From Octopus vulgaris (lineage: Eukaryota): 64,000 bases of DNA. The notes under the pieces are model-generated. The model saw only the letters and a program-made list of their open reading frames with translations. It did no database searches and was not told where the DNA came from. Location of the stretch: assembly GCA_951406725.2 (NCBI GenBank), contig OX597823.1, positions 4,836,001-4,900,000 of the forward strand, given 5' to 3'. Below, in pieces: positions 3,405 to 59,508 of this stretch (position 1 is the first letter of the stretch; each line of letters opens with the position of its first letter). The translations under genes and the position numbers were made by a program.

Positions 3405-3536
3405 TCCTCTGACGAGGCCTTTGGTTATTTAAACATACAAGTATAATTTTTAATGCCTAGAACTGTATCACACTGGCATCTATAGGCAATATAAGTTGAA
3501 TTGACTCTTGACCATAGGCTGAAACAGCTGTAAGGA
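3405..3536 (+). ncRNA. Type I hammerhead ribozyme motif with long stem II
   Basis: TCCT-CTGACGA-GGCCTTTGGTT...GACCATAGGCT-GAAA-CAGCTG-TA-AGGA: stem I TCCT/AGGA, intact core, palindromic stem III, GUA site. Confidence 0.8.
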
Positions 3537-4159
3537 GCAGTTTATTTGTATTATTTTTATTTTTATTATTATATTACATATTGATGTATATTGTTTTGTT
3601 CGATTTTAATGTTACCATTTGTATAATTAATAAATAATGTGAAATTGTAATATCCATAAATTGATGATTGAAATGAATTTGTTTCTCCATTTTCTTATTT
3701 GTTATATATATATATATATATATATATATATATATAATGTGGCAATCCCAGGATGGGATGAATATAACTGTTATAAGAAATATTGCTTCTAGCTGGTTAA
3801 GGACACAGAGCTTTTGTGTTGTTTTGCCATCATCGTCGTCACCATCATCATCCTCATCACTGTGTTATTACCCTATTACCCCCACCATACTTATTATCAT
3901 TATCACCAATGGGGAGGCTGATTTGCTGGTGTAAAGGTAACATGCTTAGTTGCGTTAACAAAGGGATGTGTGTTCAACTCCCACGCGGATAGGAAAAGTC
4001 ATTGCACAGTGATCGCTGTAAGCTTTAAACTCATATAAAAAATACCATTATTATTATTATTTACAGGATTGTAAACTTGGCGCCGTATAAAAAACCATTT
4101 GCACCAAAAGCACACACACACACATATATATATATGTGTATGTATGTATTTTTATTCTT

Positions 4160-4541
4160 TTATTCTTTTACTTGTTTCAGTCATTTGACTGCGGCCATGC
4201 TGGAGCACTGCCTTGAGTTGAGAAATCGACCCCAGGACTTATTCTTTGTAAGCCCAGTACTGATTCTATCGGGGATGTAAACACATCAGCATTGGTTATC
4301 AAGCGATGTTGAGGGAACAAACACAGACACACAAACATATACACACACATACACACACACACACACACATATATATATATATATATATATATATATATAT
4401 ATATACATATATATATATACATATATACGATGGGCTTCTTTCAGTTTCCGTCTACCAAATCCACTTACAAGGCTTGCCCAAGGTGCCACACAGTGGGACT
4501 AACCCGGAACCATGTGGTTGGTAAACAAGCTACTTACCACA
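4160..4541 (-). mobile_element. Octopus-type tRNA-derived SINE with internal microsatellite, internally deleted
   Basis: Reverse complement of the 56840-57240 family. Confidence 0.8.
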
Positions 4542-4547
4542 TATATT

Positions 4548-4670
4548 GATTTCAAATTTTGGCACAAGGCCAGCAATTTCGGGGAAAGGAGTAAGTCAAT
4601 TACTCTGACCCCAGTACTCAACTGGTACTTATTTTATTGACTCCAAAAGGATGAAAGGCAAAGTCGACTG
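4548..4670 (-). mobile_element. MetaSINE-like SINE fragment
   Basis: Reverse complement of gtcgactttgcctttcatcctttt...ataagtaccagtt...tactgggg core. Confidence 0.65.
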
Positions 4671-4754
4671 CAGTAGGTGTCTGGAAAACATCAGCATTGT
4701 TGGGCTGAATTAAATGTATGCTGAGAACTACTTTCGTTTGTTTACCGGTACATA

Positions 4755-56839: not shown

Positions 56840-57240
56840 AGGCGTAGGAGTGGCCGTGTGGTAAGTAGCTTGCTTACCAACCACATGGTTCCGGGTTCAA
56901 TCCCACTGCGTGGCACCTTGGGCAAGTGTCTTCTACTATAGCCACAGGATGACCAAAGCCTTGTGAGTGGATTTAATAGATAGAAACTGAAAGAAGCCCG
57001 TCGTATATATATGTATGTGTGTGCATATATGTTTGTGTGTCTATATTTGTCTCCCCAACATTGCTTGACAACCGATGCTGGTGTGTTTACGTCCCCGTAA
57101 CTTAGCGATTCAGGTAAAAGAGACCGATAGAATAAGTACTAGTCTTACAAAGAATAAGTCCTGGGGTCAATTTGCTCAACTAAAGGCAGTGCTCTAGCAT
57201 GGCCACATTCAAATGACTGAAACAAGTAAAAGAGAAAGAG
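56840..57240 (+). mobile_element. Full-length octopus-type tRNA-derived SINE
   Basis: GGCGTAGGAG-TGGCCGTGTGG (A box), GGTTCAATCCC (B box), internal (TA/TG)n, 3' end tgactgaaacaagtaaaagag; many copies in the window. Confidence 0.85.
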
Positions 57241-58296
57241 AGGATATCTCGAGTAAGCAGAACAAATATGTAAAGGTTTAAAAGTCACTTATTAAATGTC
57301 ATTATTATAGATTTCTCTTTTTAATTGCTGAACAATCAAATTTTTTGAAGTTATGCTAGCATCATGAAAAAGGAAACACACAGGTTTCAAATTTTGACAC
57401 AACACCAGCAATTTCAAGGGAAGGATGGAAGTCAATAACCCCCCCGTGCTTAAATAGTACTTATTTTATCAACCCCAAAAGGACAAAAGGTCAAGTCAAC
57501 TTCAGTGGAATGTGAACTCAGAAGAAACACTGCTAACCATTGTATCTGGCATGCTAACAATTTTTCCAGCTTGCCACCTTACACATGCACACACATAGAT
57601 ATATATATATTGACAGCATATAATGTACTGTTATTAGATATGATGTTTGTTAAATTATTATTTTAGTATAGCACCAACATATGATACTTTATGCATATGC
57701 ACTATTCACTGCCAAGATACTGAGATAAATGTACTGTATTAAAAACAATATTTATCAGAGGAAGACGAAAAAGTGGCTGGCAAGAATGCCTGATGCATTT
57801 AAACCTTCTTTGGCCTTGTCAATGGCATGCACATGTAGGTACATAGCTAGCCAAGATTTGCCATTTCTGATATATAGGAAACAATGAATAATATGTTCAC
57901 TGATATTGCGAATAATGGTTCTTTCCAATGTCAACTTTCATCCCTTTGAAGTTTTGGAATCAATATACTGAATAATTTTCTCTCTACCAAAATTGCTGGC
58001 CTTGTGTCTAAAACAAAAACCATTATTATTGTTGTTGTTAAGGCAGTGACCAGGCAGAATTATTAGCCTGCTGGGCACAATGCTGCTAAGCATTTTGCAC
58101 ATTTTTAAACACTGAGTTCAAATTCTGCCAAGGTTGACTTTGCTATTCATCCTTTTGTGGTCTATAAAATAACTACCAGCTTAAATACCTAGGTCAATGT
58201 AATCAACCTACTCGTCCCCCAAAATTTCAGACTGTGCCTTTAGTAGAAAGGATTATTATTATTATTATTATTATTATTATTATTATTATTATTATT

Positions 58297-58811
58297 AAAA
58301 AAGTGGCTAGCAAGAATGCCTGATGCATTTAAACCTTCTCCAAGTTCCACCCAGAGACCTCAAGAGACAACAAGTTGGAAGTTCATGTTGGTGTTATGCC
58401 TAGGGTGCCATATATTTGGTTTTGTACTTAGTGTCATACTAGTGAATGCCTAAAAAAACCATACGAAAATTATGTTTGTTTTAAAACTTGAGATTACATA
58501 GAAAGTATTTTGCATAGGATATGAGCAGTTCCCATGAGCACTATCTTTTGAATTTCTGCCATTTTGAGGTTTCCTGGTATCTGAGTTAGGTAGCAATCAG
58601 CCCTTTTTGCTATCATTCCCAGGGCACCTATCACAACAGGTATTGTTTTAGTCTTCAGGTTCCACATTTTGCTGATTTCTATTTCCAGATCTTTATATTT
58701 GCTCAGTTTCTGGTAGGTCTTGACAGATACGTTTGTATCGATTGGGACAGTCATATCAATGAGGAGGTATGTTTTTTGTCTGAAGTCTTTTACTATGATG
58801 TCTTTTTTACT
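58297..58811 (-). mobile_element. R4/Dong-like RLE 3' fragment between (TTA)n/(TAA)n tracts
   Basis: DIIVKDFRQKTYLLIDMTVP...KLSKYKDLEIEISKMWNLKTKTIPVVIGALG. Confidence 0.88.
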
Positions 58812-59449
58812 ATAATAATAATAATAATAATAATAATTATTATTATTATTATTATTATTATTATTATTATTAAGGTGGTCAGCTGGAACAATTGTTTGAG
58901 CATCAGAAAAATTGCACTGCCATATTTTTATTCTGACTCCATATGCTCTAAGTTCAAATTCTGCAGAGGTCAAATTTGCCTTTTATCCTTACAGGATTGA
59001 TAAAACAAAGTATCAGTCATGTATTGGTATCATCAACTCCTCCTCCTCCTCCCCCCTTCAAAGCTGCTGGTCTTGTGTCTGAATGAGAAACTGTCCTGTC
59101 ACCAGTTCTCACCTGTTTCAAAGCAAAGTAATATTCTCCATGACCAGAGAAGTTCCCACAGAAGTATTGAAATGAAGGATACTGCTTTCATGTCAGTGAT
59201 ATATCATGGACTGTTAGAAGCTTACAAACGTCCTGCACTTAGATCCTTGGATTTTACAATTACATATCAATAATATATATATATATGTGTGTGTGTATCT
59301 GTAAACTATGAATTAGGGTATCTGAGAGATACCACCATGCTGAAATAGCAGTCAAAACCCTGACCCTAAAACCACCTTAAATGTTCATATTGCGCCATGA
59401 GAGAAGGCAGAAAGGCAAAATAAACTAGCAAAAAAGATTTTACTGGATA

Positions 59450-59508
59450 ATTCAAGATCCTGGATTTCTGGCTTTGCTTCAGAGAAGCTCTACCTTCTTC
59501 AGTTGAAT
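59450..59508 (-). ncRNA. Type I hammerhead ribozyme motif (AUC site)
   Basis: Minus strand ATTCAA-CTGAAGA-AGGT..GCTTC-TCT-GAAGC..GCCA-GAAA-TCC-A-GGA-TC-TTGAAT; 6-bp stem I. Confidence 0.75.

Follow-up and report, generated by a model that had tools for sequence, protein, structure and literature searches.

Eight families of minimal hammerhead ribozymes, probably ends of Penelope-like elements, in a 64-kb stretch of the Octopus vulgaris genome

We analysed a stretch of 64,000 nucleotides of the Octopus vulgaris genome (assembly GCA_951406725.2, contig OX597823.1, positions 4,836,001 to 4,900,000; hereafter the window) for hammerhead ribozymes and the mobile elements that carry them. The window holds eight minimal type I hammerheads, which represent eight high-copy repeat families, and three of these families join open reading frames (ORFs) of Penelope-like elements (PLEs). 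Judging from their sequences, most of the window copies are likely inert PLE ends lodged in (TA)n. An earlier reading of the same DNA from its letters alone (the sequence-only reading) had claimed eight hammerheads, and all eight were located where it had placed them. Truncated and fold-back PLE end repeats with hammerheads have been described before (Cervera and De la Pena 2014); motifs and setting alike agree with that description, and beyond that it is mainly scale that is added here. One of the families, called 16390 after the window position of its motif, exists in intron-less and intron-keeping copies and provides a mechanistic lead bearing on why PLEs retain introns.

Hammerhead families and their links to Penelope-like elements

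The hammerheads were identified with a motif descriptor combined with a reading of core and stems. All eight contain the core elements C(U/C)GANGA, GAAA and UH together with stems I and II, and the same is true of the majority sequences of all eight families. Within the window each family is represented by one motif only per strand. The motifs are listed below with the inserts in which they lie, several of which have the form of PLE end repeats (pseudo-long terminal repeats, pLTRs).

3405-3536(+): in a pLTR-type insert, 3263..3702(+), with a short inverted arm (3263-3329) followed by the sense arm that carries the hammerhead; stem II region of 105 nt, palindromic stem III, predicted cleavage after 3532; the family has a non-coding 5' extension of more than 2.6 kb
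10440-10474(-): the most minimal of the set, in an insert of ~210 nt, 10340..10547(-); in the family the 3' end is fixed and the 5' end variable
13636-13673(-): in the sense arm of a fold-back insert, 13526..14245(-), with an inverted-arm stub at 14217-14245 and a copy of nearby DNA (13687-14212) between the arms
16390-16456(+): in an intron-less pLTR copy derived from an autonomous Hydra-clade PLE, 16370..16598(+), in which the last 8 nt of exon 1 (16370-16377) are fused to exon 2; short 3' end
23929-23980(+): in a pLTR-type insert, 23649..24052(+), with no bounding (TA)n
28733-28804(+): in the sense arm of a fold-back pLTR of a Hydra-type PLE, 28086..29046(+), with an inverted arm (28086-28206), a long tail and a SINE-like (short interspersed element-like) repeat inserted at 28207-28608
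44002-44097(-): in the 5'-truncated pLTR of a Hydra-type PLE, 43778..44268(-); one stem III pair lost
59450-59508(-): in an insert, 59303..59657(-), that is a portion of an ORF-less head-to-tail unit of ~480 nt

The inserts had been read as mostly bounded by (TA)n. This is so on both sides for five of the eight, at the 3' end only for two, and on neither side for 23929. The predicted cleavage sites of the eight motifs lie at 3532, 10444, 13640, 16454, 23976, 28800, 44006 and 59456.

Each window motif belongs to a separate dispersed repeat family, with candidate copies numbering 1024 for 3405, 3210 for 10440, 405 for 13636, 1360 for 16390, 2568 for 23929, 406 for 28733, 553 for 44002 and 1507 for 59450. 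For closer inspection the best 25-30 BLAST-matching loci per family were sampled, 215 in total (single fetched loci are cited by L numbers). The core is intact in the majority sequences of all eight families and is retained by 12-27 copies per family; non-CpG changes amount to 33/1893 (1.7%) in the core versus 728/16627 (4.4%) elsewhere, which suggests selection in the source lineages. An upstream inverted arm was found at 40 of the 215 loci, and seven of the eight families have two classes of 3' ends, ~70-180 nt apart, while the 5' ends vary widely in the 23929, 28733 and 44002 families. An inverted 5'-truncated arm, a tail and a (TA)n target are signatures of PLEs (PMC8557442). The proposal of several distinct families with PLE-type minimal hammerheads and palindromic stem III is thereby upheld, the 3' end lying in a TA repeat at 182 of the 215 loci.

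Regarding the proteins, the ORF remnant of a decayed Hydra-clade PLE in the window, 31095-32028(-), has 22,483 candidate relatives and is 75-86% identical to relatives with a 717-aa ORF. A sense hammerhead lies 188-936 nt downstream of the Hydra ORF in 24 of 30 loci, and L247 preserves a complete layout of inverted pLTR, pLTR, 717-aa ORF and pLTR. Read by eye, the 717-aa ORFs of L246 and L247 contain RWK, DKT, a CxCX5C linker, CxxC, CxH, no CCHH and a C-terminal endonuclease. The 16390 repeat borders Hydra ORFs on either side, the parent ORF being 32-43% identical and carrying an RWK-type motif. The 28733 family reaches a Hydra-type endonuclease remnant via ~2.2 kb common to L300 and L301, and the 44002 family does so in L303, where an inserted repeat is spanned with the help of L199 and L215; in these two families endonuclease remnants were the sole Hydra parts seen. 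Since 16390, 28733, 44002 and the decayed copy near 30200 join Hydra-clade PLE ORFs, we take the window motifs to be mostly truncated or fold-back pLTRs. Pfam gave no match on the PLE proteins, and a protein search returned 814 homologues, none of them informatively named among the 120 listed. Two further links were ruled out: the Neptune ORF adjacent to 44002 is not its source, as the 44002 repeat occurs in 0 of 29 other Neptune loci (the layout of L305 resembles the 44002-Neptune neighbourhood, but with another Neptune family), and the ORF in L306 is not tied to 10440, another family's hammerhead sitting between them.

Like the Hydra-clade PLEs with C-terminal endonuclease (EN+; Craig et al. 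2021, PMC8557442), the elements found here have RWK, DKT, CxCX5C, CxxC and CxH, an ORF of <3 kb, a hammerhead in the pLTR, (TA)n targets, an inverted 5'-truncated arm and a tail; unlike them, with tails of 30-40 nt, the tails here measure ~70-180 nt. With the minimal hammerheads published for PLEs they have in common a minimal core, a short helix I, a palindromic stem III and an extra nucleotide before stem II, as well as the presence of many families per genome, mostly as single motifs of truncated PLEs and with opposite-strand pairs 100-700 bp apart. They differ in that stem III is in many cases palindromic over 6-7 nt and inserts in stem II are as long as 105 nt. A 2026 repeat annotation of octopus lists 31 recently active PLE families, and the available portion of its main text does not contain the words hammerhead, ribozyme, Hydra or intron (PMC13282606).

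Several observations weigh against this assignment. The loci were chosen as best matches to the window copies, which biases both the end positions and the conservation of the core. There is little covariation: a comparison of 3405 with one related family yields 2 double changes in stem I, with 29 of 500 shuffles as high, and among nine 13636-type copies there is none, 96% of cells being paired. The hammerhead is the predicted minimum-energy fold in 0 of the 8 window copies. The fetched loci, 1.8 Mb in all, showed no link to an ORF for 3405, 10440, 13636 and 23929, nor for 59450; ORFs seen near loci of the first four belong to other elements, and these four could be independent non-autonomous families.

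The last point leads to the possibility that most inserts are dedicated non-autonomous families, retrozymes or mini-PLEs with short masters of their own, possibly moving via circular RNA. We consider this unlikely, even though no parent was found for four families and 59450 behaves in such a manner: its tail joins its own 5' end at an identical junction in 7 of 25 loci, a period of 476-486 nt is seen in 5 of 25, and there is no ORF. A canonical 359-nt retrozyme array also exists in the genome (L384), and retrozymes are derived from pLTRs according to the available part of a preprint (bioRxiv 10.64898/2026.07.22.740005). Against it stand the three families that join ORFs directly, the variable 5' ends of 23929, 28733 and 44002, the two mixed forms of 16390 described below, and the fold-backs of 13636. 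The latter are present in 20 of 30 loci and show 14 different junctions among 17 scored, so the hairpins arose insertion by insertion. Moreover, no tandem copies were found in the seven families other than 59450 among the loci seen. The label of non-autonomous families, given in the sequence-only reading, therefore fits only in part: three of the eight (16390, 28733 and 44002) continue into PLE ORFs, and an ORF-less repeating unit is seen in 59450 only.

From its sequence 59450 likely moves as a non-autonomous, retrozyme-like unit of ~480 nt. It resembles the metazoan non-LTR retrozymes (PMC7229834) in its non-coding head-to-tail unit, type I hammerhead and 6-bp helix I, and differs from them (150-450 bp) in unit length and in that its tandems are mostly partial and have PLE-type ends, two complete consecutive motifs being present at a single locus. 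A classical non-LTR retrozyme was observed elsewhere, at L384:2300-4550, where a canonical type I hammerhead recurs in a 353-359-nt tandem array of five sense and two inverted units; related motifs are present in L098, L116 and L198. As a separate observation on 13636, L058 and L055 carry a hairpin 15-45 nt upstream of the core, the base of which is the point where most copies stop or fold back and where the sequence resembles a splice acceptor.

Intron-less and intron-keeping copies of the 16390 family

Behind its ORF the 16390 element consists of a 3' untranslated region (UTR) of ~1.4 kb, TATA-like and initiator-like words, a short exon 1 and an intron of 896-903 nt. The intron is putative, as read from genomic sequence, with GT-AG ends and a branch-like word ~15 nt before the AG. 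Exon 2 follows with the hammerhead, two 3' ends and the next ORF start ~350 nt past the core. A stem I of 2 bp is the state of the family in 25 of 25 loci, which rules out that the window motif is a decayed hammerhead copy.

In the window copy the intron is absent exactly. We collected 74 de-duplicated copies, a set enriched for intron-less copies by the choice of query. By script, 26 of them were labelled intron-less, 47 intron-keeping and 1 unclear; inspection by eye gave ~29, 43 and 2 other, with four more intron-less copies, among them that of the window and the 5' pLTR of L341, and one scripted call that turned out to be a fold-back junction. Among 349 exact exon-2 matches the first 30 were taken as an unbiased set, with 10 intron-less and 20 intron-keeping copies by eye (8, 9 and 13 unassigned by script; in three pairs the loci are identical or duplicated). 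Stricter scoring of 67 junctions gave 28 exact exon 1-exon 2 joins, 36 intron ends, 1 join 4 nt shorter and 2 unclear cases.

The two forms differ in where they stop. The intron-less copies contain at most 30 nt of exon 1, and read-through upstream was seen in 0 of 19 of them versus 14 of 21 whole-intron copies (P = 6e-6; 7 of these 14 had been selected as 3' pLTRs), and in the unbiased subset the read-through was 0/7 versus 6/9 (P = 0.011). Among 14 long elements fetched, the 3' pLTR was seen in 11, all of which contain intron sequence, complete in 8. L341 unites both forms in a single insertion, with an intron-less 5' pLTR and an intron-keeping 3' pLTR. Exact intron loss, a stop within 30 nt upstream and an intron kept in 11 of 11 downstream pLTRs point to a spliced, promoter-initiated sense RNA as template.

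A mechanism can be outlined on the basis of published work, according to which the PLE protein nicks AT-rich DNA and reverse transcription is primed at an internal site of the RNA that lies downstream of the hammerhead, itself uncut; cleavage by the hammerhead needed the PLE protein and was dispensable for insertion (PMC11167929). The two 3' end classes fit the two start sites of that study. An early stop of copying would leave pLTR stubs of 200-700 nt, often with a fold-back arm. The 16390 RNA would start at a promoter in the upstream pLTR and be spliced; priming in this pLTR would produce a short intron-less copy that ends at the 5' end of the RNA, and the downstream pLTR would remain unspliced and pass promoter and intron to the next generation. 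We put the chances as even that 16390 retrotransposes in this way from a spliced promoter-initiated sense RNA, with upstream-pLTR priming giving hundreds of intron-less stubs and the downstream pLTR keeping the intron. If true, intron retention in PLEs would be explained without an antisense template, a route to solo pLTRs would be given, and splicing would act as a switch that closes the hammerhead, as intron removal adds a predicted 8-bp helix around it. To the points against our reading belongs that the 16390 promoter is inferred only from the TATA-like and initiator-like words and from the stop points of copies.

The intron-less form could also go back to one DNA deletion or template jump at a short common word, amplified from a single master, which appears doubtful to us. 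Exon 1 and the intron end do have a 5-nt word in common and the junction of L359 is the expected jump product, but the usual junction exceeds the product of the shared word by 4 nt and coincides precisely with GT/AG. In a tree of 64 exon-2 rows a single young subfamily holds most intron-less copies and the labels cluster (a value as low in 0-1 of 500 shuffles); nevertheless the two forms are mixed, with 13 changes, at least 4 of them forced by well-supported branches (the bootstrap is not fully settled), the junction occurs in at least two well-separated subfamilies, and one set of identical exon-2 sequences includes both forms. Intron-less members are absent from an 11-row clade in which the acceptor is changed, and both forms are present in L341.

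Both Penelope and Chlamys are known to have an intron in the pLTR. By what means the introns of PLEs survive the passage through RNA is described as unresolved (PMC8557442); an antisense template has been proposed, with an unspliced sense template left open (PMC3846280). Exact intron loss in copies ending at a putative start site, together with an intron kept in downstream pLTRs, makes the question testable from genome sequence. No report of exact intron-less genomic PLE copies was found in the part of the literature that the searches covered. Like Penelope of Drosophila virilis (Schostak et al. 2008, PMC2377424), 16390 has a pLTR promoter (putative here), a short exon 1 and a 5'-UTR intron, and as in that element (PMC2377424; Cervera 2014) the intron ends just before helix I and the proximal helix I has 2 bp. 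In D. virilis the intron end maps to helix I (PMC4209133), and in both elements the context of the hammerhead is altered by splicing, as predicted here for 16390. Unlike the 75-nt intron of Penelope, that of 16390 has 896-903 nt, and while the genomic copies in D. virilis are described as intron-retaining, ~29 of 74 copies of 16390 are without the intron exactly. The ~900-nt pLTR intron and the intron-less genomic copies also set 16390 apart from the Hydra clade as described (PMC8557442). With Poseidon PAc of Anolis (Frangieh et al. 2024, PMC11167929) the family has in common two 3' ends past the hammerhead, AT-rich targets and an uncut ribozyme in insertions, here known from sequence; PAc belongs to a different clade and its hammerhead overlaps the ORF start, unlike 16390 with an ORF that begins ~350 nt after the core.

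Three further observations concern the same family. A widely spread subfamily (L345, L351, L357, L360, L365, L366, L371, L378 and L379) has lost the AG at the intron end, carries an exon-2 insertion and keeps the intron in all copies. L339, L337, L316 and L318 contain tandem units of ~430-460 nt made of 16390 tail and ORF start without the hammerhead, possible ribozyme-less non-autonomous derivatives. None of the sequencing runs listed is on record as RNA. Contigs of four runs, the RNA status of which was guessed, span the intron, with two joints at the junction in one run; they do not speak for splicing, since the joined form is also present as DNA.

Motif frequency, folding and host transcripts

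The type I descriptor yielded 6 loose and 5 strict matches in the window; it fails 16390, with its proximal stem I of 2 bp, and 44002, where one stem III pair is gone. In 150 whole-window and 150 block-wise dinucleotide shuffles the means (whole-window/block-wise) were 0.38/0.37 loose and 0.03/0.04 strict matches and the maxima 4 loose and 2 strict, so that the motif frequency of the window lies above chance. As background, 34 evenly picked 10-kb stretches of the 2.8-Gb, 227-contig genome were searched with the same descriptor and gave 23 loose and 13 strict matches, equal to 4.3 and 2.4 per 64 kb (2.2 and 0.05 matches in shuffles). Against these stretches the density of the window is near the genome background (P = 0.27 loose, 0.10 strict). 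Seven background matches stem from one tandem array, and its removal leaves 16 loose and 6 strict (P = 0.09 and 0.007). The window is enriched a few-fold at most and is mildly rich once the array is excluded. Extrapolation from the 34 stretches amounts to ~50,000-170,000 motifs genome-wide, roughly one per 15-55 kb, versus 2,000-9,000 published for three genomes, counted with different descriptors. The flanks of the fetched loci (1.8 Mb) contain at least about twenty more hammerhead types with other stems and palindromes. The hammerhead models of Rfam matched 0 of 10 pieces of the window and likewise failed to recognise a canonical positive control, so Rfam is uninformative on these motifs; for the whole window it reported 278 matches, and the 150 listed were nearly all microRNA models on (TA)n, with no hammerhead among them.

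Stem III is not predicted to form a hairpin in any family, and the self-duplex energies range from -1.7 to -11.1 kcal/mol. In the window copies of 28733 and 44002 the palindrome and dimer helix are decayed (-0.8 and +0.3 kcal/mol; rough sums, the 44002 value with the core position off by one). Single minimal hammerheads have been found inactive and dimers weakly active (PMC4209133). The ribozymes would act on the element's own tandem RNA, as dimers or assisted by protein, and lone genomic hammerheads would cleave little or not at all.

It had also been suggested that the motifs could cut host pre-mRNA. A crude splice-site scan of unmasked DNA recognised no host exon in the window and 60 kb of flank, and the idea is therefore without support here; the motifs are solitary per family and strand, and lone minimal hammerheads were inactive in published tests (PMC4209133). 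That they are retained to cut or regulate a host transcript spanning the window, for example as mixed dimers, is accordingly most improbable. The 3405 and 23929 motifs lie on the same strand and have in common an 8-nt palindrome, the duplex of which is predicted at -11.1 kcal/mol (again a rough sum), but they are separated by 20 kb, the copies of 28733 and 44002 show ordinary decay, and the density is near background. Chance matches in AT-rich repeat DNA can be discarded with near certainty, since despite the silent Rfam models and 2.2 loose chance matches per 340 kb, no more than 2 strict matches in 300 shuffles stand against 5 observed, the core is intact in the majorities of all eight families, the hammerhead has a fixed position in PLE pLTRs and Rfam failed on the positive control as well.

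Further features of the window and of the fetched loci

Besides the eight inserts the window contains the following remnants.

30125..32225(-): decayed Hydra-clade PLE with ORF remnant (31095-32028), inverted 5' piece (32031-32225(+)), 3' UTR and pLTR; the pLTR holds a ninth motif, 30161-30222, with two core changes
42111..43755(+): decayed Neptune-type PLE remnant
48630..48725(-): 3' half of a hammerhead with GAAA, palindrome and cleavage triplet, without the 5' core; no relatives among the fetched loci

Two decayed PLE ORFs had been noticed from the letters, and both are present, one Hydra-type, 31095-32028(-), and one Neptune-type, 42111-43755. The four degenerate or half copies claimed in addition are a mixed group: that near 30165 is the ninth motif, that near 48700 is the 3' half only and that near 28190 corresponds to the inverted arm in the 28733 insert, while the sequence near 59315 is a hairpin in the 59450 insert and not a hammerhead.

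A duplication of 527 nt with 98% identity links 13687-14212, inside the inverted arm of 13636, to 14906-15432, as if nearby DNA had been captured, and a further copy with 72% identity lies at 15678-15853. The remnants at 7119-8234(+), 44229-45266(+), 964-1323(-) and 37086-37287(-) include two reverse transcriptases of the LINE (long interspersed element) type (Pfam RVT_1), a weak Tc1-type transposase match and a helicase-like piece. A SINE-like repeat with internal units of 66 nt has more than 15 occurrences in the window, and a near-pure (TA)n tract of ~490 nt extends over 26379-26870.

Among the fetched loci, a very young Neptune-type PLE (L282:275-4182(+); also L283-L287, L293 and L309) has identical 775-aa frames for reverse transcriptase and endonuclease on several contigs. 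An upstream ORF1 of 557 aa overlaps this frame, the overlap containing a T-TTT-TTA slippery-type word, and the 3' pLTR of ~1 kb yielded no hammerhead; its sequence is possibly that of a frameshifting, ribozyme-less EN+ PLE. The Hydra clade likewise includes a young family (L246:2390-4540, L247-L251) with open 717-aa frames, several copies of which lie in large inverted pairs. In this family a lysine precedes the catalytic DD, where arginine is the usual residue.

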